Source: an uncultured Alphaproteobacteria bacterium
GTDB taxonomy: Bacteria > Pseudomonadota > Alphaproteobacteria > RF32 > CAG-239
Direction of reading: 5' to 3'
Assembly: GCA_944391475.1 (NCBI GenBank)
Contig: CALXTR010000004.1
Coordinates: 25,807-89,806 of the forward strand
Length of the DNA: 64,000 nucleotides
Within the stretch, counting starts at the first letter, position 1. The number at the start of each line of letters is the position of its first letter. The position numbers and the translations under genes are program-made. Shown here in pieces: positions 1 to 52,629 of this stretch. The notes beneath the pieces were generated by a model. The model worked only from the letters and a program-made list of their open reading frames with translations. It ran no database searches and was not told the DNA's origin.

Positions 1-335
1 GTTTTGCAACCAGGCTCGGCGCGACCTACCTCTGGAAGGAGTGGGAACTCTCCGATACTAAATTTCAAAAGAAATTCGTCCTAACTTGGTCTTGCTTCAG
101 ACAGGGTTTGCCTGGACCATCCTTGTTGCCAAGAATGCGGTGAGCTCTTACCTCGCCTTTTCAACCTTACCTTCCATATAGAAAGGCGGTAATTTTCTGC
201 GGTACTTTCCCTTGGGTTTCCCCAGCCAGACGTTATCTGGTGTCTTGTTCCCTTGAAGCCCGGACTTTCCTCACAAGTGGATTTTACTTTCCGTTGCGCG
301 GCTATCCGGCCACCCGTTTGCTAATTTAACCATTA
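1..335 (-). ncRNA. rnpB: RNase P RNA (rnpB, type A). The 3' part is cut off by the window edge.
   Basis: The minus strand reads GAGGAAAGTCCGGGCT (P4 5' strand, plus-strand coordinates 270..262). CCAGATAACGTCTGG...GGGGAAACCC, GGTAAGGTTGAAAAGGCGAGGTAAGAGCTCACCGC and GGTAGGTCGCGCCGAGCCTGG match the conserved P10-P12, P13/14 and P15-P18 regions of bacterial RNase P RNA. The 5' end is estimated about 61 nt upstream of the GGAAAGTCC motif. Confidence 0.8.
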
Positions 336-5294: not shown

Positions 5295-6967
5295 ATATAT
5301 ATTCCATCCTGCAAAAGTGGGGGTTCGGGTTCATCATCGCATAGCTTGATAAACTTTTCTTTAATATTAATCCGAATATTACCGGCATAGTCAACCTCTG
5401 ACAGAGATTTCCTAAATAAATTCATAATTTCGGTGCAAAAGTCGGTATCAATTTCCTTTTCGGTACGGATAATAAGGTCAAAGCGTCTCTCTTGCGGCAG
5501 CGAAAAACCATCAAACTGAAAACCGCCCAGAGCCGTAAAAGAAGTATCAACCACAAAACGAGCTGCGCCTTTGCCTTTGGGGCTGGACTGTTGGTGGCGC
5601 CCATCTTTACCAAACCTTCTAACTGCAATCTGAATTCGGCTTAAGTTTTCGGCCCCATAAAACGGAATTTCAATAATCCGCCACTGGGTATTATCTTCAC
5701 GACGGCCGATAATCATATCTTCTAAGCGGGCCAAGGCCTTTTGTCCCTCGGGGCCGGAAAGGCGCAAGCTATCGACCACATCTTGCCCCAACCAACTCTC
5801 AATTTTTCCCTCACCGGTGGCTTTGAGAAAGGTCATAATATTAGATAGCATTTTGTGGTTGTGAGCCGGAATTTTATCAATAATGGCATTGTAAACCTTT
5901 GGTGACACCTGTGTTTGGAGCGGAGCCAAAATTTCGTGTAACTTGCTTCCTAATGACTGCGCTGTTCCTCCCTCTGATTTTTGGTTTATTTTAGGTTCTC
6001 GTTCTAGCCCCAGCAGTTCGGAAAAACGCAGGATAAATTTTTCACCAACGGCGATTTTGAGCGGAACTTCAGGGATTATCTCGCCTAAGGGCGTACGCAA
6101 CACAACTTTATCCCCGCGCAGGGAGGTTTCAGCCGTAATCTCGCGGCCAGAGGGACCATTTTCAAAAAAGTTTTTAATGGTCTCAATTATCTTTTCAGGC
6201 AAGCCTTGAGATAGTTTTGTATCAATACTGCTTGGCTGGTTGGAATATACCGCAGAATTGCTCTGTGGCAAAGATGTTTCCAGCAAAGGTTTGAGTGTGG
6301 CAGCCAAATTACGGATAACTTCCGGTAAGCTTTGAGCCATTGTAGTTGGTGGTGGCGAAACCGTAGTATTTGATTGCAACGCTGTTTCGACAATTTCGGG
6401 TTTGAGTGACAAATTTTCAATCAAATTGGATAGTTGGCGGATTTCAGAGCTCCCTACTCCCATAGCGGATAATTCACGTGCCAAAAGTGGCTGCAAGCGC
6501 AGCGGAACCAAAGCGACATCTTGCAAATTGCCAATGGTTTTAACCACTGCCGCAGTATTGCTAATAGTGTCTTTTATTGCTGACGTGGATACAAAATTTT
6601 CAACCTTCTGCCCATCAACACTTATCAAGCGGACATCTATCCGCTGAGGAGTTTTGGCGACTACTCGCGCCTGAATTTGGCTGGCTTGTTCAGGAAGCTG
6701 TACTTGTGGTGGCAAGTTCATTGTAACGGTAGCATTTGCGCTCCCGGTGTTCTCCCCGCTTCCTACACCTAAATCAATACTGACCAGCAACTTTCCGGTT
6801 AAGGTTTGCATAGTTTGCGGCTTAATCTGCAGGTTAATCTGCTGGCCTAAATTCAGGTTTCCCATGCCGCCTTCGGGAGTTTCAATCCCTGCGGTCACCC
6901 CAGAGCCGGTACTGCCGCCTTCGGGAAGAGTCACATTTAGCGGCGGAACCAGATTAGTCATTGGCAA
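5291..6967 (-). CDS. Hypothetical protein encoded inside the flagellar export operon (no recognisable domain)
   Basis: A 558-aa ORF directly downstream of flhG, overlapping its last codons. The sequence is Gly/Ser/Thr/Pro-rich. The first codon at 6967 is TTG; the ATG at 6961 is an alternative start. No confident motif was found. Confidence 0.5.
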   Translation of the reverse strand: MPMTNLVPPLNVTLPEGGSTGSGVTAGIETPEGGMGNLNLGQQINLQIKPQTMQTLTGKLLVSIDLGVGSGENTGSANATVTMNLPPQVQLPEQASQIQARVVAKTPQRIDVRLISVDGQKVENFVSTSAIKDTISNTAAVVKTIGNLQDVALVPLRLQPLLARELSAMGVGSSEIRQLSNLIENLSLKPEIVETALQSNTTVSPPPTTMAQSLPEVIRNLAATLKPLLETSLPQSNSAVYSNQPSSIDTKLSQGLPEKIIETIKNFFENGPSGREITAETSLRGDKVVLRTPLGEIIPEVPLKIAVGEKFILRFSELLGLEREPKINQKSEGGTAQSLGSKLHEILAPLQTQVSPKVYNAIIDKIPAHNHKMLSNIMTFLKATGEGKIESWLGQDVVDSLRLSGPEGQKALARLEDMIIGRREDNTQWRIIEIPFYGAENLSRIQIAVRRFGKDGRHQQSSPKGKGAARFVVDTSFTALGGFQFDGFSLPQERRFDLIIRTEKEIDTDFCTEIMNLFRKSLSEVDYAGNIRINIKEKFIKLCDDEPEPPLLQDGIYI

Positions 6968-7766
6968 CTAACCTCTTGGCGATGGCATAAACATCTTCAG
7001 CCGCTTCGGATGTGGGGTAGCGGTTAAAAATTGTACTTTGGTTGCGAATGGCGTCGCGGACGCGGGTATCTCGACGGACAATCCCCAACAGCGGCGGATT
7101 TATCTTTAAGAAATTGGTACAAGCTTTGAGCAATGTATCATAAGTGCGCTGGCCTTCACGCAAAGAATTGGCCTGATTGACCACAATGCTAATATCGCAT
7201 TTAGTATATTGCATGGTCATAATCTTGATAAAAGCATAGGCATCGGTCAAAGAAGTGGGTTCATCGGTACAAACTACAATTATCTTTTCGGCTAAGCCAG
7301 ACAAAATCCTCACTGGTTTTTCTACTCCGGCACCCATATCCAAAATTACCTTATCGTAAGAAGAGGCCAATACATTCAAATCCTCTCCTAATATCTGCAA
7401 TCTACCGACCGGAAGAGAGGCCAAACCTGCAGAGCCCGAACGACCGGCAATGACATCAAAGTGTCCTTTATCATAATGATGTACAACCTGATTTAAGGTA
7501 AGGCTTCCCGAAACAACGCTCCCGATATCATATTTTGCCATTAACCCTAACTGAATGTCGACATTAGCCAAGCCTAAGTCGCCGTCAAAAAGTAAGGTCT
7601 TTTGTTTTAAGATGCTAAGCGAGTGTGCCAAGGTGATGGAAAACCAAGTTTTGCCAACACCGCCCTTACCCGAGGCAACCGCAATCAGGTTCTTGCCTTT
7701 TTTGGTGCTACGGGGAGTGGTCCCTCGGGGCATGATTTTTAGTTCTTCGGGTTTGTTTTGTTCCAT
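6954..7766 (-). CDS. flhG: Flagellar number regulator FlhG/FleN (MinD-type ATPase)
   Basis: A deviant Walker A motif (GKGGVGKT) and MinD/ParA-family features. The gene is immediately downstream of flhF. Confidence 0.8.
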   Translation of the reverse strand: MEQNKPEELKIMPRGTTPRSTKKGKNLIAVASGKGGVGKTWFSITLAHSLSILKQKTLLFDGDLGLANVDIQLGLMAKYDIGSVVSGSLTLNQVVHHYDKGHFDVIAGRSGSAGLASLPVGRLQILGEDLNVLASSYDKVILDMGAGVEKPVRILSGLAEKIIVVCTDEPTSLTDAYAFIKIMTMQYTKCDISIVVNQANSLREGQRTYDTLLKACTNFLKINPPLLGIVRRDTRVRDAIRNQSTIFNRYPTSEAAEDVYAIAKRLVAND

Positions 7767-16231: not shown

Positions 16232-18463
16232 CTAGCTCATCCGGGTTAACTCGTCGAGCATTTCATCGGCTGTGGTAATAATCTTGGTAGCTGCTGAATA
16301 AGCTCGTTGGGTTACAATCATATTTGAGAACTCTGTAGCCAAGTCTACGGTTGATTGCTCTACCGAGCTGGCGGCAATCTCACCGGCACCATTGGTTCCC
16401 GGGCGCTTCAACAAAGCTTCGCCAGAGTAGTCGGTTTCAATCCAGGCGTTACCTGTTAGAGCTTCCAAACCATTGGCATTGGCAAAAGTTGCTAATGGCA
16501 GAATAGCAATCGGTCTGGTTTCGCCGTTATCAAACAGAGCTGTGACCACACCATCATCACTAACACTTACACCTGAGTAGCTACCGAATTTGGCACCATC
16601 TTGGGTGATGTAGTTGGTGGTGAAATCTCCCGAAAGACTGGTCAAGCCATCGTTGGTGCCAATATTACCGGCATTGATGGTAATGGTCGTACCTTGTCCA
16701 TAGCCACCGTCCATATTTTGTGCACCATTAGCCCACTGAATGGCTGCCTCATCAACAAAGAAGTATTTGGGGGTACCATCAGCATTGAAACGTACAGAAG
16801 GAACAATTGCACCGGTTTCTACTTCAGTACCATTTACATTGAAGGTATTGGACAATGTATATTCCGTACCATTGCCAATATCACTCCAACCTTGCGGAGC
16901 GGTTGAACGAATCCGTCCGGTGATAGCACTATCTCCGTTTACGTTATTAACGGTAATTTTGATATCAGGACCGGTAGAAGTCGGCAAAATCTCAATGCTG
17001 CTGCCGCTGGCGGTGAAGCGTTCGGGCTCAACACTGTCATTTTTGAGTTGTTTTACGACCAATTCAGCTATGGTTGCACCTGGGTTAACATCGCCATCAA
17101 ATGCAGAACTGATATCAATTTGGTCTGGACCTGCACCGCCATCTACCAAGGTATAGGTCTTATCTCCAACTTTGATAGTACTATTTACATAGTCATCTTT
17201 TTCGCTGCTGGTGAAATCTATGCGTCCGCAGTTTTTGATGTCTTCGTCAATTGCGGGGATTTCAAAAATACCAGTGGCAATACCGGTTTCAAGATTGGGG
17301 TTAGCGGCACTTTGTACGCAAGCTAAGGTCTTGCTGGCATCAATAGTTAAAGCCTCTCCTGAGATTGATTGCACAATCTCAATCTTGTTGCCATTTACGC
17401 TAAAGCGGTTAGCTCCCGGCATATTTTCTTTTAGGGATTCTAAAAATTTATTAGCAAAATCGCTTGCAGAGGTAATACCTGTGGAGATATCAACACCAAT
17501 ATTTCCGGGCTGAGCAACGGCACCATCGGTGCTTAAGAACTCAAAAGTATAGGTCTTGCCACCACTCGTAATCGAAATGGTCGAACCATTGGAAGGAATA
17601 CTTGAAAATTCTAACTGACCTGCAGCATAGTATACGTCGCTGACCGTATCACCGTGAGTTTCACGAGAGCCGGAAAGGACAATATTGGAAGCTCCTGGCG
17701 GGATTGATGCTGCCATACCCCAACCATTTGAAGACTCCTTGGTGTAGGTCAAGCTCAAGTTGCTGGCATTACCCAAGCTATCATAAATCAGCGCTGATAC
17801 CGAGTGACGTCCGCCTGCTTCCGGATTGGAGGCATCAAATATCGGATCACCAGATGGTAAGTTTGCACCAAAGTTAATCTGCTTGGTAGCGGTGGCTGTT
17901 CCGCCAATTGTATTAAGATTAATCGGGCGAAGGTTACGATTATCAACAATGTTGTCATTGATGTAAACAACCTTACCATTGGCATCGTAATAAGCCTTCA
18001 TGTAGTCAATACCATTAATATTAACCACGGTTGCATTGGGGTTTTTGTCCCAAGGCAATAATGACCAGCCTTGGGCATAGAAACCACCAGTGTTTCTAAG
18101 GTAGCCGTTGTTATCAATATCAAAGTCGCCGGCACGGGTATATGCCCATAAGTCCCCCTCTCCGGGGTTGGCTGCTTGGTTAACTACAAAGTAACCTTGA
18201 CCACTAATGGCCAAAGATGTCGAGGAAGATACTGATGCCAACAAACCTTGAACATTAATACCTTGCTTGGCTGAAGGTTGCACACCACCGGGGGAATATC
18301 TTGAAGTAGTTGTTTGTTTGGTTACCAAAGTTTGAAACGAGGTATTGGCTCCTTTGTAGCCGACGGTGTTAACATTGACGATATTATCCGAGATAGCTCC
18401 CATCGCGCTAGATTGGGCGGCCAATCCCGATATACCTGACTGCATTGCACCAAAAATACTCAT
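16232..18463 (-). CDS. flgE: Flagellar hook protein FlgE (large, 743 aa, extended central domain)
   Basis: The N-terminal rod/hook motif (NIVNVNTVGYKG) and the C-terminal motif (VTQRAYSAATKIITTADEMLDELTRMS) are present. A long central insertion lies between them. Confidence 0.85.
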   Translation of the reverse strand: MSIFGAMQSGISGLAAQSSAMGAISDNIVNVNTVGYKGANTSFQTLVTKQTTTSRYSPGGVQPSAKQGINVQGLLASVSSSTSLAISGQGYFVVNQAANPGEGDLWAYTRAGDFDIDNNGYLRNTGGFYAQGWSLLPWDKNPNATVVNINGIDYMKAYYDANGKVVYINDNIVDNRNLRPINLNTIGGTATATKQINFGANLPSGDPIFDASNPEAGGRHSVSALIYDSLGNASNLSLTYTKESSNGWGMAASIPPGASNIVLSGSRETHGDTVSDVYYAAGQLEFSSIPSNGSTISITSGGKTYTFEFLSTDGAVAQPGNIGVDISTGITSASDFANKFLESLKENMPGANRFSVNGNKIEIVQSISGEALTIDASKTLACVQSAANPNLETGIATGIFEIPAIDEDIKNCGRIDFTSSEKDDYVNSTIKVGDKTYTLVDGGAGPDQIDISSAFDGDVNPGATIAELVVKQLKNDSVEPERFTASGSSIEILPTSTGPDIKITVNNVNGDSAITGRIRSTAPQGWSDIGNGTEYTLSNTFNVNGTEVETGAIVPSVRFNADGTPKYFFVDEAAIQWANGAQNMDGGYGQGTTITINAGNIGTNDGLTSLSGDFTTNYITQDGAKFGSYSGVSVSDDGVVTALFDNGETRPIAILPLATFANANGLEALTGNAWIETDYSGEALLKRPGTNGAGEIAASSVEQSTVDLATEFSNMIVTQRAYSAATKIITTADEMLDELTRMS

Positions 18464-21207: not shown

Positions 21208-21594
21208 CTAAGATTGAGGATTCTCAGCCGGAGTTTCGTGAGCGCTCAGGCCTTTGGCGATATTCATATTTATATCTATCAACACGCCTAAGCTTTCGGG
21301 CTTGGGATCAACCATAATAGAGACGGTCCGTTTGAAAATAAAGACCCCTAAGTTAATGATATTGGCTCGCACTTCTTGCGGTTGCTGACAATTTTGCTCT
21401 TGCATGGCAGATACGATAATTGTCCACAATTTGCGATTTTTTTCTAAGGCTTCATCTAATTCATTTTTACGAGTTTCCCAATTTTCCTTAATTAGGTTTA
21501 GGGCGGAAGCCGTACGAATCAGCGCGCGGCTTTCGAGTTCAACCTGATTGAGCGTGTTTACCTCATTGGTGGAATATTGCTGTAAATTATCCAT
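21208..21594 (-). CDS. flaF: Flagellar biosynthesis regulator FlaF
   Basis: 128 aa. NRKLWTIIVSAMQEQNCQQPQEVRANIINLGVFI matches the FlaF family signature (NRRLW...LPxELRAxIISL). An alphaproteobacterial flagellin regulator. Confidence 0.7.
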   Translation of the reverse strand: MDNLQQYSTNEVNTLNQVELESRALIRTASALNLIKENWETRKNELDEALEKNRKLWTIIVSAMQEQNCQQPQEVRANIINLGVFIFKRTVSIMVDPKPESLGVLIDINMNIAKGLSAHETPAENPQS

Positions 21595-30416: not shown

Positions 30417-31568
30417 ATGGCTAACTTACAAGCAAAATCTCCGGTGGTGTTACAAGTTTTGCCGGAGCTTGATACTGGCGGGGTTGAACGCGGAACTATC
30501 GAAATTGCGACCGAACTCCAAAAACGCGGCATCAAAAATTTTGTAGCCTCCCAAGGCGGACGTTTGGTGCATGAGCTAGACAAGCTCAAAATCCCTCACC
30601 TCACCTTGCCGCTTAAAACTAAAAATATTTTCAAAATGCGCAAGAACGCCAAACTCTTGGAAGATTTTATTCGCAAAAATAACATCAACATTGTTCATGC
30701 GCGTTCCAGAGCTCCGGCTTGGAGTGCTTATTGGACGGCTAAAAAAGCTAATGTGCATTTTATGACCACTTTTCACGGTACTTATGGGCTAGGACCTTGG
30801 GGTATCAAAAAAATTTATAACAAAGTCATGACCTTTGGAGAACGTGTGATTGCGATTTCTAACCACATCAAAAACCACATGCTCAAAAACTACAAAGTTG
30901 ATGAAAGTAAAATCCGCCTAATCCATCGCTGTGCCGATGTGGAGATTTTTTCGCCTAAGGCAGTGACGCAGGCGCGGATGATTGGCAAACTCCGCGAATA
31001 TAAAATCCGCGAGGACAAGCCGGTTATCTTGCTTCCCGGTCGAGTAACCCGTTGGAAAGGTCAGCATATCCTCATTGAGGCTCTGCACCTGATGAAAAAC
31101 CAAAACTACTACTGCATTATTGCCGGCGACAGCCAAGGACGGCAAAAATATGTTGACTACCTTGAAAGGTTAGTCAGTAAGTATAAACTAAAAGGTAAAG
31201 TCGGCTTCTTTGGACGCTATAGCGATGCTCCGGCTTTGATGATGGTGTCAAATGTGGTCTTGTCTACCGCAATTGAGCCAGAGGCTTTTGGGCGGATTTC
31301 GATTGAGGGGCAAGCTATGGGCAAAATCGTAGTGGCATCAAATATTGGTGGCTCGGTCGAAACCATTATTGACGGAGTGACCGGTAAGCTTTATCAATAT
31401 GACAATCCGCAAGAACTTGCCAATGCGTTAGACTGGGCTTTGGGGCTATCTGAAGAAGAAGTTGGCAAAATCTCGAAAGCGGCGATAAAAAATGTAAAAG
31501 AAAACTTCACAAAACAAATAATGTGTGATAAGACTATTGAGGTTTATGAGGAGCTTGTAAACTCTTAA
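30417..31568 (+). CDS. Glycosyltransferase family 4 (GT-B, group 1)
   Basis: A GT4 N-terminal domain with a C-terminal EX7E-like region. The N-terminus reads LPELDTGGVERGTIEIATEL. Confidence 0.6.
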   Translation: MANLQAKSPVVLQVLPELDTGGVERGTIEIATELQKRGIKNFVASQGGRLVHELDKLKIPHLTLPLKTKNIFKMRKNAKLLEDFIRKNNINIVHARSRAPAWSAYWTAKKANVHFMTTFHGTYGLGPWGIKKIYNKVMTFGERVIAISNHIKNHMLKNYKVDESKIRLIHRCADVEIFSPKAVTQARMIGKLREYKIREDKPVILLPGRVTRWKGQHILIEALHLMKNQNYYCIIAGDSQGRQKYVDYLERLVSKYKLKGKVGFFGRYSDAPALMMVSNVVLSTAIEPEAFGRISIEGQAMGKIVVASNIGGSVETIIDGVTGKLYQYDNPQELANALDWALGLSEEEVGKISKAAIKNVKENFTKQIMCDKTIEVYEELVNS

Positions 31569-33935: not shown

Positions 33936-35054
33936 ATGGCAGATATTTCATTAACAGCAAGTATGCGTTCAAACTTGCTTTCCTTGCAGCAGACACAGTC
34001 GCTGATGGATACTACTCAAGAACGCCTTTCTACAGGTAAGAAAGTTAACTCAGCTATTGACAACCCGTCATCTTACTACGCAGCACAGTCTTTGACTAAC
34101 CGTGCGAGCGACTTGAGCGCTTTGCTTGATAGCATGGGCCAAGCCATTCAAACCATTCAGGCTGCCGATGAAGGTATTAAGACCATCACCGAGTTTGCTG
34201 AACAAGCCAAAGCTGTGGCTAACTCCGCTCGTGACGAAGCTGTTGACATGAGTGACATTTCAGTTGCGCTTGATATTAAAGCTCAAGCGGCAGCAGCAAG
34301 TACTCTTAAGATTGATATTACTAAAGCAGATGGAACTGCTGGTACCTCAACAACGGTATCAATTGCACAAAATACCACTGCTGAAGAAGCCAAAGCACAA
34401 ATTCTGGAAGAATTGAATGCTGATGGCACTGGCGTTAAAGCCTCTTTTGATAAAGATGGTAAATTGGTTATTACAGCTCAAGATGGTGCTACTGCCAAAT
34501 TGACAGGCACAGGAGACTACAATGCCGCTACCGGCACTTCTGCACCGCAAGTAAACGAGTCACGTCAAAAATTAGCCGCTCAATTTGACAGCATTTTGGC
34601 TCAGATTGATAAAGTTGCTAATGACTCTAGCTACAAAGGTGTTAACTTGTTGCAAGGTAATGACCTTAAAGTAGTGTTCAACGAAGACCGTTCTTCTGAC
34701 TTGGTTATTGAAGGTAAGGACGCTTCTTCTGCCGGCTTGAAGATTGCCGCTTCTGCTAATGATTGGAAGACCAATGCTGACGTTGATGCCGCAATCACTC
34801 AGATTGAAGATGCAATTAAAGAATTGCGTACTATGTCATCTGAGTTTGGTAACAACTACTCAATCGTTCAAAGCCGCGAAACCTTTACCGAAAACTTGAT
34901 TAACGTTTTGGAAGAAGGTTCAGATAAATTGACCTTGGCTGATATGAACGAAGAATCAGCAAATATGTTGGCTCTTCAAACCAGACAGCAGTTGGCTATT
35001 AACTCCTTGAGTTTGGCTTCTCAGGCTGCTCAATCAGTATTGAAACTGTTCTAA
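33936..35054 (+). CDS. Flagellin (372 aa)
   Basis: The conserved flagellin N-terminus (MADISLTASMRSNLLSLQQTQ...STGKKVNSAIDNPSSYYAAQSL) and C-terminus (NMLALQTRQQLAINSLSLASQAAQSVLKLF) are present. The RBS is GGAGA. Confidence 0.9.
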   Translation: MADISLTASMRSNLLSLQQTQSLMDTTQERLSTGKKVNSAIDNPSSYYAAQSLTNRASDLSALLDSMGQAIQTIQAADEGIKTITEFAEQAKAVANSARDEAVDMSDISVALDIKAQAAAASTLKIDITKADGTAGTSTTVSIAQNTTAEEAKAQILEELNADGTGVKASFDKDGKLVITAQDGATAKLTGTGDYNAATGTSAPQVNESRQKLAAQFDSILAQIDKVANDSSYKGVNLLQGNDLKVVFNEDRSSDLVIEGKDASSAGLKIAASANDWKTNADVDAAITQIEDAIKELRTMSSEFGNNYSIVQSRETFTENLINVLEEGSDKLTLADMNEESANMLALQTRQQLAINSLSLASQAAQSVLKLF

Positions 35055-35072
35055 TTGCAGTTTTATTAAAGA

Positions 35073-35104
35073 AAATCCCCAAGATAAAAACTTGGGGATT
35101 TTTG
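35073..35104 (+). terminator. Rho-independent terminator after flagellin 1 (duplicated at 35526..35557)
   Basis: The hairpin AAATCCCCAAGATAAAAACTTGGGGATTT is followed by a T-run. Confidence 0.7.
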
Positions 35105-35118
35105 TTGTCTATCGCTCG

Positions 35119-35397
35119 TCACTTAGTACTACAGAGCGCATAAAGATCAGACACCTTGTGAACTTCATTTAACTCATCGTCGCCGATACTAACATTAAAC
35201 TCATCTTCCAAATCCATAACTATTTCGACCACATTCAAAGAATCTGCTCCGAGGTCATCATGTAAATCAGCATTGTCGGACACATAGTCTGGGGAAAGCG
35301 ATAATTTGTTTGCTACCACATTTTTGATTGTTTGTATCATCTGAGGATCATAACTTGGGGTAGCAGCCTTTTGTTTGTTAAATAATTTGATATTCAT
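35119..35397 (-). CDS. Acyl carrier protein-like (specialised ACP, copy 1)
   Basis: 92 aa. DLGADSLNVVEIVMDLEDEFNVSI contains the DSL phosphopantetheine attachment motif and the helix II signature. Confidence 0.75.
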   Translation of the reverse strand: MNIKLFNKQKAATPSYDPQMIQTIKNVVANKLSLSPDYVSDNADLHDDLGADSLNVVEIVMDLEDEFNVSIGDDELNEVHKVSDLYALCSTK

Positions 35398-35424
35398 AAT
35401 CTGAAAATTTTAATTAATAATTTT

Positions 35425-35442
35425 AACATTCGGCCGAATGTT
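35425..35442. promoter_or_regulatory. 18-bp perfect palindrome AACATTCGGCCGAATGTT upstream of the ACP gene (second copy at 35878..35895)
   Basis: A perfect inverted repeat about 30 nt upstream of each ACP start codon. It is a candidate operator site. Confidence 0.45.
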
Positions 35443-35571
35443 AGAATTTAGAGATGATTTTGTCAAGCAATATCATCGGCGCTCAATCAGTATTGAAACT
35501 GTTCTAATTGCAGTTTTATTAAAGAAAATCCCCAAGCTAAAAACTTGGGGATTTTTGCGGTCTATCGCTCG

Positions 35572-35850
35572 TCACTTAGCACTACAGAGCGCATAAAGAT
35601 CAGACACCTTGTGAACTTCATTTAACTCATCGTCGCCGATACTAACATTAAACTCATCTTCCAAATCCATAACTATTTCGACCACATTCAAAGAATCTGC
35701 TCCGAGGTCATCATGTAAATCAGCATTGTCGGACACATAGTCTGGGGAAAGCGATAATTTGTTTGCTACCACATTTTTGATTGTTTGTATCATCTGAGGA
35801 TCATAACTTGGGGTAGCAGCCTTTTGTTTGTTAAATAATTTGATATTCAT
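35572..35850 (-). CDS. Acyl carrier protein-like (specialised ACP, copy 2)
   Basis: Differs from copy 1 only at the penultimate residue (A instead of T). It lies within a 453-bp tandem duplication. Confidence 0.75.
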   Translation of the reverse strand: MNIKLFNKQKAATPSYDPQMIQTIKNVVANKLSLSPDYVSDNADLHDDLGADSLNVVEIVMDLEDEFNVSIGDDELNEVHKVSDLYALCSAK

Positions 35851-35936
35851 AATCTGAAAATTTTAATTAATAATTTTAACATTCGGCCGAATGTTAGAAT
35901 TTAGAGATGATTTTGTCAAGCAATATCATCGGCGCT

Positions 35937-36411
35937 CAATCAGCCTACACAACCATTAAAAAAAGCCTCCCTTGGGGGAGGCTTATAATTTGGAAGGGAC
36001 GGGATTTTCCAGCTCGGTTTGTAACACTCGCTTGCCACGCTTTCGCGGGCTCGCTCTTTAACAAACTTTCGCCTGTCGTTATAAAAAGCTCCACCGGAGC
36101 TTTTTATCGCCTCCAGCCACCGAACACGAGAGCTCGTGTCGGTGTTCAATCGGCCTACACAACCATTAAAAAAAGCCTCCCTTGGGGGAGGCTTATAATT
36201 TGGAAGGGACGGGATTTTCCAGCTCGGTTTGTAACACTCGCTTGCCACGCTTTCGCGGGCTCGCTCTTTAACAAACTTTCGCCTGTCGTTATAAAAAGCT
36301 CCACCGGAGCTTTTTATCGCCTCCAGCCACCGAACACGAGAGCTCGTGTCGGTGTTCAATCGGCCTACACAACCATTAAAAAAAGCCTCCCTTGGGGGAG
36401 GCTTTTTTTAA
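35937..36411. repeat. Tandem direct repeats with a 210-bp period (2 full copies and a partial third) abutting tRNA-Phe
   Basis: Units begin at 35937, 36147 and 36357. Each carries a terminator-like hairpin (GCCTCCCTTGGGGGAGGC) and fragments resembling the tRNA-Phe 3' half (GGGACGGGAT, CCACCGAACACGAG). Confidence 0.8.
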
Positions 36412-36487
<76 letters not shown>

Positions 36488-36572: not shown

Positions 36573-38708
36573 TTAGTTCCGCCCCGGCACATTTTTGGCC
36601 AACAATTCATAATTTATCGATTTATCAAACTCTTGACCTTCATGATTGGTTTTATACAAATTGTAACGGAAATAAATTGATGACTGCTCTTTTAGCAACT
36701 CTGCCGAATTATTCACATTATCCATAAGCTGCTCGGTGTAGTTATAATAAGTTTGGTAACTATTGAGATTGATGGATATATCCTCAGCAATTGGACTGTT
36801 TATCTCTTGGGTATGTTGCAAAATGGCTGCTTCGGTAAAATCATCCGTGGCCTTGAAAATACTGCTCATGGCTTGCTCCGGAAAAGCACCCAGTGCAGCT
36901 ATATCTTCAACTTCATCAAACAAATTGCTGTCGGCATCATTAAAGTTATCATCACCCAAATAGCCAGGAACCAAATATGAATTGCAGACACCTCGCTCCA
37001 ACTCGTGGGCTAACTTATTAATGCCATATTTTTCAAGTTCAGGATATGCTGAAGCAATTACATCTAGGTTATTGGAGAACTTATTAAACTGCGCTTGGTG
37101 CAATTGTGACATACTTTGCAGTGAAGCTTCCAAAGTTTCTCGCTCTTTGCTTATCATTAACCGTTGGATAGCCATGTTGGCATGATAATAGAGCTCAACT
37201 GCTCCAAATTTTTCTAAACTATCCGGCAATGCCTCAATTTGTTGATATAAGTTATTGCTGGGTTCAATGAATTTGGTAGTCGTGATAATTTGGTTTATCT
37301 CTTGATAATGAGATGAAAACGAGGTCCAAAATGGAGCCAGCACATTAAAGTTATCTGCGGTGAGCGAATCTGCATATGACATTTCTGCCAACAATTTGCG
37401 GTCCAACTTGCTATCAGTGAGCTTTTTACCTAAATATTTTTCGCTGTGTTCGGAAAAAATCATCATCTCTTTAGTGAAATCGAGTAAATTGCGCGCAACC
37501 AGACTATTTATCGGGCGATTATCTGTTATAGATAAAACCTTGAATAGCTGATTTAGCTCAAAATTTACTAATGGAACCTGTCCTTTGTCAGGGTAAAAAT
37601 CTGATGCCAAAGCATTTCCTAGAAGATCTCTGAGCCCCTCAAACAGCTCGCTGCCTTCTACAATGGTGCGCGATTTTTCATATTGCTGCCATTTATCTTG
37701 CTGAAATTGGTCTTTGGTATGTTGTTGGAGTTCAAGCTTTTGAAGCTCGCCATCTGATGCATAATCCTTGGGCAGCTGAATCGGCTTGGATAATGATAAA
37801 TCGACCGGAGAAATGCGAATTGGAGCTTCCCATTGGTGAGCTAATTTCTGACGGAAAATTTGCAAACGCAATTCTTCTGCGCTCAAAACTGCAGAATCGT
37901 TTGCATGCTGGAGTAGGGTTAAGTGATGGCGATTTTCCATGACTTCGGCAATAACCCCATGGTCAGATACTATAATTTTACTTAAAGCTGAGGTTGACTG
38001 ATATACTATCTTATACATTTGCTCAGGCGTCACAACATTTTCATAGCCCTTAATGCGTGATAAGATTTGTTCGGTTAAATCTTGGCGGTTGGGGTCCAGT
38101 CCATTTTCCACATACCGAATACAATTGTCATATAAGATGCCGTTAAGCGCCTCAATGTTATCCAACAAATTGCGCTTGTTGCTAAAAAATATTGCAATAC
38201 TTTGCCCTAAATCGCGGTCATCTATTTGCTCATAGAGCTCTGCTTTGCGTTGGGTAGCGACCGTGTCTAAATAGGCATCGGCAATGTTGCTTAAAAACAT
38301 AGCCCAACTCGTGGCATGCTTCTTGTCCTCCTCTGCGGGAAGATTTTGAGCCCAATCAAACAATTGGTGTATCGGAGCCGCTAGAGAATAACCACTTTCA
38401 CTTATGGGAGATACATCAGCAAACTTACGATCATCTAAAACATGACCATGAAGGCTTATGGACAACAAATATGCGGCTTCGGCCCTATCGTTGGCGTCTA
38501 TCGGTTCAACCTTGTGCCCATAAAAAACTTCTAGCTCTGTAGCATAGGCCTTTAGCATCGGATAAAAACCGGCAATAATTTCGCGGTCTGCAAAATATTT
38601 GGCTTGCTCTTGATCGTGAATGTTATTGGCTAAAAAATACTCCTCCAGCAAATCCGGAATGGAGACCAGAAGCTGCATATATTCTTGTTGATGTTGTATA
38701 TCTGTCAT
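36573..38708 (-). CDS. Large hypothetical protein (711 aa), no recognisable domain
   Basis: A long ORF with an ATG start, 71 nt downstream of flgE2 with no intervening terminator. It has no signal peptide or transmembrane segment, and an acidic composition. Confidence 0.55.
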   Translation of the reverse strand: MTDIQHQQEYMQLLVSIPDLLEEYFLANNIHDQEQAKYFADREIIAGFYPMLKAYATELEVFYGHKVEPIDANDRAEAAYLLSISLHGHVLDDRKFADVSPISESGYSLAAPIHQLFDWAQNLPAEEDKKHATSWAMFLSNIADAYLDTVATQRKAELYEQIDDRDLGQSIAIFFSNKRNLLDNIEALNGILYDNCIRYVENGLDPNRQDLTEQILSRIKGYENVVTPEQMYKIVYQSTSALSKIIVSDHGVIAEVMENRHHLTLLQHANDSAVLSAEELRLQIFRQKLAHQWEAPIRISPVDLSLSKPIQLPKDYASDGELQKLELQQHTKDQFQQDKWQQYEKSRTIVEGSELFEGLRDLLGNALASDFYPDKGQVPLVNFELNQLFKVLSITDNRPINSLVARNLLDFTKEMMIFSEHSEKYLGKKLTDSKLDRKLLAEMSYADSLTADNFNVLAPFWTSFSSHYQEINQIITTTKFIEPSNNLYQQIEALPDSLEKFGAVELYYHANMAIQRLMISKERETLEASLQSMSQLHQAQFNKFSNNLDVIASAYPELEKYGINKLAHELERGVCNSYLVPGYLGDDNFNDADSNLFDEVEDIAALGAFPEQAMSSIFKATDDFTEAAILQHTQEINSPIAEDISINLNSYQTYYNYTEQLMDNVNNSAELLKEQSSIYFRYNLYKTNHEGQEFDKSINYELLAKNVPGRN

Positions 38709-38779: not shown

Positions 38780-39985
38780 TTATGTCTTTAAGTTAACGAG
38801 CTCTTGAAGCATCTCATCACTGGTGGTAAAAGCTGTCGCATTCAAGGAATATGCACGCTGCACAATCATCATAGTGCTAAACTCCTCCTCAACATTGGCT
38901 GTAGAGGATTCCAAGGCTTGTGATTGTATCAGCCCAGAGGTTTCAAGATACGTGCTTTCTCCGGCATCGGGATAGGCCTCAAACAAGGTGCCAGAAACCG
39001 GATACAAATTGTTAGGAGCACTAAAACCTACCAATGCCAGCTTAGCATTATTAAATGTTTTTCCATTACTATAAACTGCTTGAACAACTCCGTTTTCATC
39101 AATCCAGCTTTTGCTAAAGCGGCCACTTTGCATACCATCTTGGGTAACGTTAGTTAACTCGTTGCTACCGGTATACTGGGTCATATTGCTGATATCAATA
39201 TTGACGGTTTGAGACATTCCATCTTCCCATGCAATATTTATATCAATGTTTTTGGGAGAAACCAGCTGACCATTAGCATCGAAAAGCACTTCTACTGGCT
39301 CGGATGTAGTTACGGTTCCGTCTTCAATTACAAAAGAAACATCCCAAATGTTGTTTTGGCCTTCTACCTTATCAAATTTCATATTCATGGTGCGACCGTC
39401 ATACTGCTCACCATAAATGGTAAGAGCATAGCTGCTGGAAGTTTCATCAGCAGGAACATTGGCCGTGATGCTCATTTCACTGGTTGGTGTGGGAGGAATG
39501 GTTTCCGGACTGATAATTTCAATATCTTCCGGATTGCTGCCAAAACCACCGCCTTCCAAAGCCGGAAAGCCCTGAACGCGGAGACCGCCTGAGGTGATGA
39601 GGTAAGTTTTGCCGTCCACGGTTCTGGTTTCAAAATCGCCGGCACGGGTATAATAAACATCTTCACCATCTTTAACCATAAAAAATGCATTACCGGTACC
39701 ATTAATGGCAACATCGTAGTTGCCGCCGGTGGAGGTGACAACACCTTGCATATCTATGAGGTTGCGATTATAGTACCCAACCCCGTCTATATCCGTGTGT
39801 GAAGAAGATAGCCCTGACTGGTTGCCTTTGACAATTGGCTGACTACCGAGCAAAGTATAAAACATGGTTTCGCTGACCTTATAACCGGTAGTGCGAATAT
39901 TGGCAATATTGGTCGAAACCGTTTCCAAAGCCTGAGACTGCGCGCTCATGCCGGTACAAGAGGGAGTGAATATACTTAGAGCCAT
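38780..39985 (-). CDS. flgE: Flagellar hook protein FlgE paralogue (401 aa)
   Basis: The N-terminal rod/hook motif (STNIANIRTTGYK) and the C-terminal motif (MIVQRAYSLNATAFTTSDEMLQELVNL) are present. The RBS is GGAGAG. Confidence 0.8.
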   Translation of the reverse strand: MALSIFTPSCTGMSAQSQALETVSTNIANIRTTGYKVSETMFYTLLGSQPIVKGNQSGLSSSHTDIDGVGYYNRNLIDMQGVVTSTGGNYDVAINGTGNAFFMVKDGEDVYYTRAGDFETRTVDGKTYLITSGGLRVQGFPALEGGGFGSNPEDIEIISPETIPPTPTSEMSITANVPADETSSSYALTIYGEQYDGRTMNMKFDKVEGQNNIWDVSFVIEDGTVTTSEPVEVLFDANGQLVSPKNIDINIAWEDGMSQTVNIDISNMTQYTGSNELTNVTQDGMQSGRFSKSWIDENGVVQAVYSNGKTFNNAKLALVGFSAPNNLYPVSGTLFEAYPDAGESTYLETSGLIQSQALESSTANVEEEFSTMMIVQRAYSLNATAFTTSDEMLQELVNLKT

Positions 39986-50683: not shown

Positions 50684-51082
50684 ATGCCTCTGAAAATTGA
50701 ACTCAAACCCCACGAGAGTATTATTATCGGCGAAGCGCTGATTACAAATGATGGGGAAAGAACTCGTTTTTATATTGAGGGGAATGTACCGATCTTGCGT
50801 GAAAAATTTATCTTGCGTGAAAATGAAGCAAACACACCTAGTAAACGGGTGTATTTTGTAGTACAACAAATGTATTTGTCACGCGACCCCAGAAAACTGC
50901 AAGATATTTATTTGGACTATGTGCGCGATTTACAAAATGCCGCACCAAGCTTGATTCCATATATCAACCCCGTAAATGAAAATATTTTGAATAATGATTA
51001 TTATTCAGCAATTAAAGAAGCCAGTAAGTTGGTTGCCAAAGAAGAAGAGCTATTTGGCGAAGCATTACGCGGAAATATTTAA
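50684..51082 (+). CDS. flbT: Flagellin synthesis regulator FlbT
   Basis: MPLKIELKPHESIIIGEALITNDGERTRFYIEGNVPILREKFIL matches the FlbT family N-terminus (MPLKLxLKPGE...NGAV). It lies immediately upstream of flagellin 2. Confidence 0.75.
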   Translation: MPLKIELKPHESIIIGEALITNDGERTRFYIEGNVPILREKFILRENEANTPSKRVYFVVQQMYLSRDPRKLQDIYLDYVRDLQNAAPSLIPYINPVNENILNNDYYSAIKEASKLVAKEEELFGEALRGNI

Positions 51083-51246: not shown

Positions 51247-52629
51247 ATGGCTGATATTTCATTAACCGCAAGTATGCGTTCTAACCTTTTATCTTTGCAG
51301 AACACTCAGTCTTTGATGGACATGACACAAGAGCGTCTTTCCACCGGAAAAAAGGTTAACTCTGCAATTGATAACCCTACTTCTTACTATGCTTCTCAAT
51401 CTTTAACAAATAGAGCTGGCGACTTAAATGCTCTGCTTGATAGTATGGGACAGGCTATCCAAACGATTAAAGCTGCAAATGAAGGTATTGAAGCAATTAC
51501 GTCTTTTGCCGAACAAGCTAAAGCTATTGTTAACTCGGCAAGAGATATTCCGAGCAATTATGATAAATATTCCATCACTTCTAATGATGTGAGTGATGCT
51601 GGTTTGGCTGCCGATGATGTGTTGATTGTGGACAGTCGTACAGATATGAGCGAGTTTACTCTCACTTTCGGCGCTGCTGATGCAGAGCAAAAGTTTAATG
51701 TCTATGTCAACGGAGAAGCTCATGAAGTGGCGCTGGAAGCAACTTCAACTGATGCTGCTAAGGCTGCCGCAGACGCTAAAACTAAGCTGCAAGCTTTGGG
51801 CTTGATTGTAGAAGATGGTGATGCTGCTGGTTCATTAAATGTGCGATCCAAAGACGGTTCGGATATCTATTGGATTAATGATGGGACTGATGGTATCGGA
51901 ACTGCAACAACCGCCGCAAAAAGCGTTACATTAGAGGCAGCCGACATTGCAAACTCTGCTGCTTTGGCCGCAAAACTGACTACCGGATTGGGGACAACCG
52001 CTACGGTTGAGGTGAATGCCGACCAAATTACCATTATGGCGGAAGGAAAAGAGTTTGTGGTGGCCGGAGATGCTGCCGATAAGCTCAATATGGCCGACAG
52101 CCGTAAATCAGGAAATGCAAATGAGCCTGTGGCAGAGCGCGTTAGCTATGCTGAACAGTTTAACAAAATTTTGGTGCAGATTGATCAGCTGGCTCAAGAC
52201 TCCGGTTATAAAGGGGTTAACCTCTTGCAAGAAAATGACCTGAAAGTTATTTTCAATGAATACAGAACTTCTGATTTGATTGTGGAAGGCAAGGATGCAT
52301 CGACCAAAGGGCTGCAAATGTCTGAGGCTGTGGGCGATTGGCAAAAAGATGCCGATTTGGAAATTTCTTTACAACAAGTGGAAGATGCTATTAATACACT
52401 TAGAACTATGGCTTCTGAATTTGGTACTAACTACTCAATTATTCAAAGCCGCGAAGACTTTACTGAAAACTTGGTCAATGTGTTGGAAGAAGGTTCCGAC
52501 AAGTTAGTCTTGGCCGATATGAACGAAGAATCGGCTAATATGTTAGCTCTGCAAACAAGACAGCAACTTGCGATTAACTCTTTGAGTTTGGCTTCGCAAG
52601 CAGCTCAAGCAGTGCTCAAATTATTCTAA
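51247..52629 (+). CDS. Flagellin (460 aa, longer central domain)
   Basis: The N- and C-termini are nearly identical to flagellin 1. The central region is divergent and longer. Confidence 0.9.
   Translation: MADISLTASMRSNLLSLQNTQSLMDMTQERLSTGKKVNSAIDNPTSYYASQSLTNRAGDLNALLDSMGQAIQTIKAANEGIEAITSFAEQAKAIVNSARDIPSNYDKYSITSNDVSDAGLAADDVLIVDSRTDMSEFTLTFGAADAEQKFNVYVNGEAHEVALEATSTDAAKAAADAKTKLQALGLIVEDGDAAGSLNVRSKDGSDIYWINDGTDGIGTATTAAKSVTLEAADIANSAALAAKLTTGLGTTATVEVNADQITIMAEGKEFVVAGDAADKLNMADSRKSGNANEPVAERVSYAEQFNKILVQIDQLAQDSGYKGVNLLQENDLKVIFNEYRTSDLIVEGKDASTKGLQMSEAVGDWQKDADLEISLQQVEDAINTLRTMASEFGTNYSIIQSREDFTENLVNVLEEGSDKLVLADMNEESANMLALQTRQQLAINSLSLASQAAQAVLKLF

Follow-up and report, generated by a model that had tools for sequence, protein, structure and literature searches.

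A 64,000-nucleotide stretch of the genome of an uncultured alphaproteobacterium of the CAG-239 lineage (contig CALXTR010000004.1, positions 25,807 to 89,806; hereafter the window) carries, between a flagellin gene and a tRNA-Phe gene, two autonomous head-to-tail transcription units that encode a genus-restricted, stand-alone acyl carrier protein (ACP) derived from AcpP. The best explanation of this arrangement as a whole, to which we give a probability of roughly 0.7, is the tandem duplication through microhomology of the gene for a dedicated ACP distinct from the housekeeping one. The mechanism of the duplication and its history in the population are now clear and ordinary.

Two complete ACP genes in a 453-bp tandem array

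Tandem Repeats Finder resolved positions 35028-35943 as a head-to-tail array with a period of 453, 2.0 copies, 99% matches and 0 indels. When the two units (35028-35480 on the flagellin side and 35481-35933 on the tRNA side, both on the minus strand) were compared position by position, four of the 453 positions differed (99.1% identity): 35084 (A in unit 1, C in unit 2), 35105-35106 (TT/CG) and 35127 (T/C). All of these lie within 44 nt around the terminator and the last ACP codons, and the other 409 nt are identical. The difference at 35127 gives Thr or Ala at ACP codon 91: the 92-aa product of the proximal gene (35119-35397, minus strand) ends in CSTK, and that of the distal gene (35572-35850, minus strand), also of 92 aa, in CSAK. 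A preliminary description of this DNA had reported a true tandem duplication of an ACP gene with this period and this identity, and the data bear it out; the terminator, the opposite-strand ACP gene and the upstream palindrome that it had assigned to each unit were all found at both copies. Its coordinates were 14 nt out of phase, since the repeat begins at 35028 and not at 35014, and positions 35014-35027 have no counterpart in unit 2.

Read from its flagellin end, unit 1 comprises a 27-nt flagellin 3' end, the terminator, the ACP gene and its promoter. The 10-bp sequence GCTCAATCAG opens both units (35028-35037 and 35481-35490) and occurs a third time directly past the second (35934-35943), marking the recombination joints. 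What was duplicated of the flagellin gene (33936-35054, plus strand; 372 aa, no cysteine) is its last 27 nt including the stop codon (35028-35054, identical to 35481-35507), rather than the approximately 40 nt reported before. The proposed fusion of the ACP gene to the flagellin 3' end is thus not a gene fusion, and the 27-nt piece is a passenger fragment of the microhomology junction. The flagellin and ACP genes are convergent, with 64 nt from the ACP stop codon to the flagellin stop codon and a terminator common to both genes. The GC content of the repeat unit is 34.9%, against 42.9% for the window. A 52-aa ORF spanning the junction (35438-35596) was not accepted as a real gene, being a product of the joint only.

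Each unit holds a promoter, a leader, an ACP coding sequence and a terminator, and is therefore a complete monocistronic gene. The best sigma-70-like site predicted in the region, TTGACA-17-TAACAT (10 of 12 positions match), lies in front of the proximal ACP gene at 35438-35466 on the minus strand, with its copy at 35891-35919; a sister species of the same genus (locus L063) has a TTGACA-17-TAGATT promoter at the same place. We rejected by eye the reading of GCCGATGA, which precedes the ACP gene, as a sigma-28-type site, there being no -35 TAAA at the proper spacing. The leader before the first ATG is 40 nt long, AT-rich and devoid of a Shine-Dalgarno sequence. The choice of the first ATG as the start codon is supported because the leader and the TTGACA box are kept in the sister species while the coding sequence is not, and because the two within-species substitutions found in ACP codons 1-19 are both synonymous. 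At the other end of the gene, a GC-rich hairpin followed by a T run (35071-35103; copy at 35524-35556) forms a bidirectional intrinsic terminator that serves flagellin on the plus strand and the proximal ACP gene on the minus strand. The sister species shows a comparable hairpin between its own ACP and flagellin genes.

A perfect 18-bp palindrome, AACATTCGGCCGAATGTT, is located at 35425-35442 (copy at 35878-35895), where about 0.02 matches would be expected by chance, and overlaps five bases of the -10 hexamer together with the likely transcription start. We regard it as a candidate operator that is not conserved: it is missing from the other promoter allele of the species and from the sister species. 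No further AACATTCGGCCGAATGTT site was found when the window was searched for it as a possible regulon operator.

The duplication predates the diversification of strains

Several ENA studies contributed contigs that encode exactly this ACP. L001, L002, L003, L005, L054 and L057 each have a pair of copies at a distance of 453 bp, joined by the same sequence, TTAGAACAGTTTCAATACTGATTGAGCGCCGATGATATTGC, and the junction is identical in seven contigs. The identity between copies depends on the strain: 100% in L002 and L054, 99.1% in the window, 98.0% in L005 and L057, and 94.3% in L001. The differences fall in blocks, namely the promoter (two alleles, one of them palindromic) and codons 11-32, 55-57 and 91. 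The nine protein variants of the 90% cluster are mosaics of the variable blocks, and the protein alleles P0003-P0010 likewise combine three variable blocks. A single shared joint and strain-dependent homogenisation therefore indicate one older duplication, after which the copies underwent gene conversion or unequal crossing-over. The presence of the same junction in at least six other contigs, with 94.3-100% identity between copies and mosaic alleles, implies that the duplication predates strain diversification. The copies are nearly identical here because they have been homogenised and not because they are recent; the term 'recent' in the preliminary description is thus misleading for a junction that is common to at least six other contigs from several samples.

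We considered whether one of the copies could be an assembly artefact, as the preliminary description had allowed for, or a decaying, non-functional duplicate. Near-identical copies are hard for short-read assemblers, and some contigs have a single copy. However, at least six other independent metagenome contigs, from varied samples and studies, show two copies with the identical junction, and in some strains the copies differ at 9-26 sites and are unambiguously resolved in the assembly. As to decay, the ORF is intact in every ACP copy read, with no frameshift and no stop codon, and the within-species dN/dS is about 0.4, which together indicate that the ACP gene is maintained by selection. This explanation is largely refuted already, and we consider it barely credible.

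A single ACP copy was observed on four contigs (L056, L058, L059 and L060). In L058-L060, this copy joins the tRNA-side promoter allele and N-terminal block to the flagellin-side C-terminal block, as expected from an unequal crossover and equally from an assembler jump through a 68-nt identical stretch. Copy-number polymorphism among strains is plausible. Of the variation in copy number that had been suggested earlier, the existence of single-copy contigs stands, although these contigs are indistinguishable from the outcome of assembler collapse.

The course of the duplication can be read from the sequences at its borders. TTTAATGGTTGTGTAGGCTGATTGAGCGCCGA, which immediately precedes the distal promoter on the ACP strand, is the start of another copy of a 210-bp element and contains CTGATTGAGC. 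This element forms a tandem array of 2.3 copies (35929-36404, minus strand) downstream of tRNA-Phe (GAA; 36412-36487, minus strand), and its partial last copy supplies the upstream microhomology. The GCTCAATCAG decamer also occurs, by chance, in the last flagellin codons (…AQSVLKLF*), where the relatives have CCGATTGAGC (L063) and CGACTGAGC (L049). A single event of illegitimate recombination between two GCTCAATCAG decamers 453 bp apart, one in the last codons of flagellin and the other in the partial 210-bp element copy that follows tRNA-Phe, yields exactly the observed structure, with the 27-nt flagellin fragment as a passenger. It took place after the split from the single-copy congener and before the strains of the species diversified, and later sequence exchange between the copies, by gene conversion or unequal crossing-over, accounts for their 94-100% identity, according to strain. 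The immediate effect would have been to roughly double the dose of an ACP expressed from a strong promoter of constitutive type.

Microhomology-mediated tandem duplication with concerted evolution is established bacterial genetics. The array resembles such duplications in its equal head-to-tail units, 10-bp joints, single junction, mosaic alleles and strain-dependent homogenisation; there is no unusual difference, and it can be taken as a textbook case. It also provides a clean natural example of a tandem duplication born from microhomology and kept homogeneous by gene conversion across a wild population.

A canonical ACP fold in a fast-evolving, genus-restricted family

Both 92-aa ORFs match PF00550 (PP-binding; E = 1.7e-12, 47.8 bits against a cut-off of 20.8), and they are the only ACP ORFs in a six-frame HMM scan of the window. 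The AlphaFold2 model (pLDDT 84) places helices at residues 18-32, 53-67, 73-76 and 82-91 and leaves residues 1-17 disordered. In a Foldseek search of the PDB, it superimposed on the ACPs of E. coli, H. pylori and T. maritima with TM scores of 0.85-0.93 and an rmsd of about 1 A. The model thus supports the canonical four-helix fold of a type II ACP. The serine of the DSL motif, Ser53, is intact and stands at the start of helix II (53-67), in agreement with the preliminary description; the N-terminal extension past the ACP core, given there as 15 aa, measures about 16-17 aa. The core is acidic (pI 4.05), whereas the extension is basic (pI 9.5).

The best sequence matches in the PDB are ACPs of type II fatty acid synthesis (FAS), at about 53 bits, and the best NCBIfam matches are generic AcpP models (NF002148, 75.9 bits against a cut-off of 71). 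The score with TIGR00517, the AcpP equivalog, is 69.0 bits, just under the cut-off of 70.45. Other NCBIfam ACP equivalog models fall far below their cut-offs, such as NF005079 (21.6 bits), which presumably represents the AcpXL type. Compared with E. coli AcpP (TIGR00517; PDB 1L0H/1T8K), the ACP, which has a pI of 4.2, shares the fold and the DLGADSL serine at the N-terminus of an acidic helix II. It differs from AcpP in the basic, disordered extension of about 17 aa, in a C-terminal DLYxxC, in an identity of 39% over 61 residues, in its location outside a fab cluster, in its rate of evolution and in its restriction to one genus.

To our exhaustive HMMER search of 1.84 billion cluster representatives, the ACP's own cluster alone responded (E = 7e-52); the next matches were megasynthases with multiple ACPs, for which the score adds up several domains, and the single ACPs among the matches listed reached at most 51% identity and about 60 bits. 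A word-indexed protein search with the ACP alone as the query returned its own cluster and one chimera only. A profile built from two clades recovered a third, P0374 (91 aa, 41% identical), and beyond these three clades the scores fell from 112 to 82 bits, down to generic AcpPs of unrelated phyla. The three clades have in common the N-terminal extension, DLGADSL and a C-terminal H(K/T)V(S/Q)DLYxxC, the last of which has no equivalent in AcpP; columns D48-L54 are invariant across the family. In the GTDB representative genomes scanned with the ACP, we found generic ACPs only (at most 49% identity). By these searches, the three-clade family is found only in this genus. A phage or defence origin of the ACP unit was rejected for want of support in any of three sources: viral contigs held generic ACPs only (at most 52% identity) and no 210-bp element, PHROGs gave a generic 'acyl carrier protein' match only, and PADLOC gave nothing.

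To compare the locus among relatives, we fetched their loci through homologues (56, 54, 48 and 43% identity) of a neighbouring gene, which follows a 401-aa FlgE-like gene and encodes a 711-aa all-alpha protein that is hypervariable like the ACP (36573-38708, minus strand). In the sister species, the DNA is 86% identical over accBC-alr-tatD-thiF-flgE, with proteins 91-99% identical, and the gene order is a 710-aa gene, tRNA-Phe, the 210-bp element, a promoter, a single 91-aa ACP gene, a terminator and the flagellin end. The two ACPs are only 38% identical (dN 0.59), whereas the dN of neighbouring genes is 0.008-0.047, and AccC is 99% identical between these congeners; the ACP has thus evolved 12 to 70 times faster than neighbouring genes. 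In the more distant L049 (DNA about 75% identical), tRNA-Phe is followed by a 150-nt spacer and flagellin, with no ACP gene, and accB is on the contig. L046 and L047, which encode a 712-aa protein identical to that of L049, have divIC and pgpA after the tRNA instead, and accBC are present. Like those of most relatives, the contigs of L045, L048, L050-L053 and L064-L066 end within about 300 nt past tRNA-Phe, and the P0369 contig, from a third species, also ends at an assembly break after this tRNA. The site downstream of tRNA-Phe is a hot spot of rearrangement or strain variation, and its varied gene content indicates that the ACP gene sits in a plastic spacer. By sequence comparison, at least two species have kept the ACP, the sister species as a single copy, and its turnover is very fast.

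The possibility that these genes encode the housekeeping AcpP of a reduced genome, duplicated for dosage, was weighed against these data. In its favour, the nearest models and structures are those of type II FAS ACPs, as the NF002148 score and the PDB matches agree, and accB and accC lie 5 kb away. Against it stand the 38% identity between congeners whose AccC is 99% identical, the identity of only 39% with E. coli AcpP, the TIGR00517 score below the equivalog cut-off, and the lack of the ACP gene at the L049 site although accB is on the same contig; L046 and L047 have accBC as well. We consider a housekeeping role very improbable. Judged by its fast rate, its restricted distribution, its absence from the L049 locus despite accB and its sub-equivalog TIGR00517 score, the ACP is not the housekeeping AcpP, as the preliminary description had considered probable. 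The latter was also right that the genes are not next to fabD, fabG, fabF or fabH: there are no fab genes in the window, only accB and accC, at 40270-42143.

Extra ACP paralogues are found in other Proteobacteria. Rhizobial AcpXL, NodF and RkpF, like the ACP described here, are lineage-specific additions beside a presumed canonical AcpP; they sit in dedicated biosynthetic operons, whereas the present gene is stand-alone. The same likeness extends to Acp1 and Acp3, extra ACP paralogues of P. aeruginosa (PMC6158461). The ACP of the window is a new, unusually fast-evolving member of this class of specialised paralogues, and no new kind of system so far. ACPs are usually pictured as highly conserved proteins, and a fast-evolving ACP family runs counter to that picture.

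Possible function of the ACP

The DLGADSL phosphopantetheine site is kept in the ACP, as is an acidic helix II similar to that of AcpP, which makes its conversion to holo-ACP probable, through a phosphopantetheinyl transferase (PPTase) encoded elsewhere in the genome; the FAS II machinery of the cell may then load it. The reading to which we commit is that it would serve as a dedicated acyl donor. The most likely single specific target would be a product of the surrounding flagellar filament locus, by modification either of flagellin or of the 711-aa protein; with the glycan and protein routes combined, we hold this view tentatively and below even odds, and a pathway unrelated to the flagellum is the main alternative. 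The ACP evolves as fast as its neighbours in the flagellar locus, flagellin and the 711-aa protein. To our knowledge, acylation by a dedicated ACP is so far known from SPI-1 injectisomes and from gamma-proteobacterial flagellin glycosylation islands. If the ACP acts on a flagellar component, it would extend dedicated-ACP acylation of proteins or glycans to the alphaproteobacterial flagellum, and its rate of evolution, as high as that of the surface-exposed parts of the locus, would be explained.

Several observations weigh against the explanation as a whole. In Pfam and NCBIfam scans of the window ORFs of at least 100 aa taken as likely genes, we found no acyltransferase, AMP-ligase, PPTase, FabG, LuxCE, Pse/Neu or Maf gene. 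The ACP has its own promoter, which is of the sigma-70 type and not obviously flagellar-class. In the L049 species, flagellin and the tRNA are arranged in the same way with the ACP missing. Xenologous replacement at a hot spot of recombination, and not fast orthologous evolution, could be the source of the very high divergence between the ACPs of different species, and synteny between congeners at 86% DNA identity says little on a functional link. Finally, a canonical acpP elsewhere in the genome was not seen directly, the data being one contig.

The competing view that the ACP is an incidental neighbour of the flagellar genes falls only slightly short of an even chance. It would be a specialised or accessory carrier serving some unrelated pathway encoded elsewhere, for instance one for a lipid, a polyketide or a cofactor, and would be one which landed in a recombination-prone spacer and was duplicated there by chance. 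This would fit the plasticity of the region after tRNA-Phe, where the copy number of the 210-bp array varies, the genes after the tRNA are not the same in L046/L047 as in L049, and most relatives' contigs break. It would also fit the low GC content of the unit (34.9% against 42.9%), the absence of the ACP from the L049 species and the organisation of the gene as an autonomous transcription unit without linked enzymes. However, the ACP unit is not flanked by any integrase, transposase or att-type repeat, the phage and defence searches gave no matches beyond generic ACPs, and the gene has been kept at the same place in two species despite an extreme turnover of its sequence. For the flagellar alternative, two routes can be envisaged. 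The ACP might carry an acyl or hydroxyacyl group with which a glycan of flagellin, built of nonulosonic acid or otherwise, is decorated, as in a flagellin glycosylation island. It abuts flagellin, with a common terminator, in two congeneric species, the flagellin length varies among strains (366-405 aa), and ACP genes are known parts of such islands in Enterobacteriaceae and Aeromonas (PMC4875605; PMC7874193). In these islands (Aeromonas group II and those of Enterobacteriaceae), an ACP gene adjoins a flagellin gene as it does here, but it belongs to a multi-gene set with FabG, an AMP-dependent synthetase/ligase, LuxC/LuxE, pse genes and glycosyltransferases (PMC4875605, PMC7874193), whereas the ACP gene of the window is alone. 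None of these partners is found in the window except a single glycosyltransferase, a GT4 at 30417-31568, and thrS lies between it and the locus; moreover, the relative L049 does without the ACP. The scans revealed no nonulosonic-acid (pse/neu/leg) or Maf genes, as the preliminary description had stated for glycan-pathway genes, and a check for a partner PPTase in the window was negative. Since fab, PPTase, nonulosonic-acid, Maf, AMP-ligase and LuxCE genes are all missing from the window, adjacency is the only basis of the link to flagellin glycans drawn in that description, and we consider this route unlikely.

The other route would be a direct transfer of the acyl chain from a stand-alone ACP to a protein exported by the flagellar type III system, such as the 711-aa protein. 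The ACP scores 45 bits, against a cut-off of 76, with NF006031, which we take to be the IacP model. Two genes of the locus are hypervariable, those for the ACP and for the 711-aa protein. In the latter, two cysteines (C196 and C575) are invariant, but these are equally conserved in the ACP-less L049 species, and both flagellins lack cysteine. Nor does the ACP gene, with its own promoter, share an operon with a candidate substrate; between it and the 711-aa gene lie tRNA-Phe and no fewer than three terminator hairpins. IacP of the Salmonella SPI-1 system acylates SipB, and its loading through FabB has been proposed (PMC5279801); an AcpP-like helix II might permit similar FAS II loading here. 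Among lone ACPs encoded with type III secretion substrates, IacP is the closest functional analogue. Like IacP and Shigella Acp (Viala et al. 2017, PMC5279801), the ACP is a small, stand-alone, non-housekeeping paralogue lying inside a cluster of type III substrate genes, with no fatty-acid or polyketide enzymes nearby. It differs in that the system is flagellar and not an injectisome, in being known from its sequence alone, in its own promoter, convergent orientation to flagellin and location outside a substrate operon, and in that no cysteine-bearing substrate covaries with its presence. Moreover, the authors of the IacP study saw no association of ACPs with translocators outside SPI-1-type systems (PMC5279801). 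Direct transfer therefore seems quite improbable to us, more so than the glycan route. Slightly less probable again is a full flagellar counterpart of IacP, in which a co-evolving ACP would acylate the exported 711-aa protein or flagellin and the duplication would tune the supply of the donor; if true, it would be the first protein-lipidation pathway tied to the flagellum.

The surrounding flagellar region and the 210-bp element

The window is a flagellar region that encodes FlhA, FlhF-like and FlhG-like proteins, FlbD, FliF/G/H/N, FlgD, FliK, FlaF and FlbT. FlaF, FlbT and FlbD, together with a member of the AccC cluster annotated 'Alphaproteobacteria bacterium', are the basis for assigning the window to Alphaproteobacteria. 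It contains two FlgE-like hook proteins, of 743 aa (16232-18463, minus strand) and 401 aa (38780-39985, minus strand), and two flagellins, of 372 aa (33936-35054, plus strand) and 460 aa (51247-52629, plus strand). FlaF (21208-21594) and FlbT (50684-51082) are not side by side but 29 kb apart. In close strains and species (the window, L059, L060, L049 and L062), flagellin lengths of 366, 372, 375, 380 and 405 aa were observed; the variation is confined to the central domain, and the termini are conserved. In all the relatives examined, the 711-aa gene comes directly after that of the 401-aa FlgE-like protein. Its product matched no family or fold, and relatives with a known function were not detected; it shows 54% identity and a dN of 0.39 with its counterpart in the congener, while the FlgE-like protein of the congener is 95% identical.

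The 210-bp element was also found at L063 10304-10598 and L045 12307-12428, and all other contigs carry about 1.3-1.4 copies. It is 96-98% identical between congeners whose flanking housekeeping genes are 82-86% identical in DNA, and is therefore more conserved than the surrounding coding sequence. Two bidirectional terminator hairpins lie within it, along with the palindrome CGACACGAGCTCTCGTGTTCG and ATCCCGTCCCT, a degenerate copy of the tRNA-Phe 3' end. Rfam gave no family for it at the gathering or E-value threshold, and the weak matches were all terminator hairpins; a 27-nt anchor from the element had 0 matches in a JGI metagenome scan, and none of the clusters of the ACP family is from JGI. 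The element is a candidate small RNA or protein-bound element. The spacer after tRNA-Phe (L049 4585-4600; window 36100-36140 and 36310-36350) contains GCCGACACGAGG, the reverse complement of the anticodon/variable-region positions of the same tRNA (CCTCGTGTCGGC); it resembles a fragment of the tRNA lying in inverted orientation inside the conserved element.

In L062 (1-4733), the last 30 ACP codons form an in-frame fusion with the start of an unrelated ORF that resembles a DUF8429 membrane protein; next comes a flagellin gene whose 405-aa product has an internal insertion of 33 aa, and both flanks are unlike the window. This arrangement could be a chimeric scaffold or a real rearrangement. Beside the syntenic block of L045 (1-1848), there are [FeFe]-hydrogenase maturase genes, HydF and a radical-SAM/BATS HydE/G-like gene, which suggests an anaerobic lifestyle for the genus. 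The window itself begins with a bacterial RNase P RNA of class A (1-317, minus strand; 197.9 bits), cut by the window start and lying upstream of an mraZ-mraW-ftsI cell-division cluster. Finally, proteins at least 90% identical to the FtsL-like (1946-2332) and FlhG-like (6954-7766) products were found on 600-776 contigs, one of them of 1,885,872 bp, which indicates that there is an abundant relative whose complete genome measures about 1.9 Mb.

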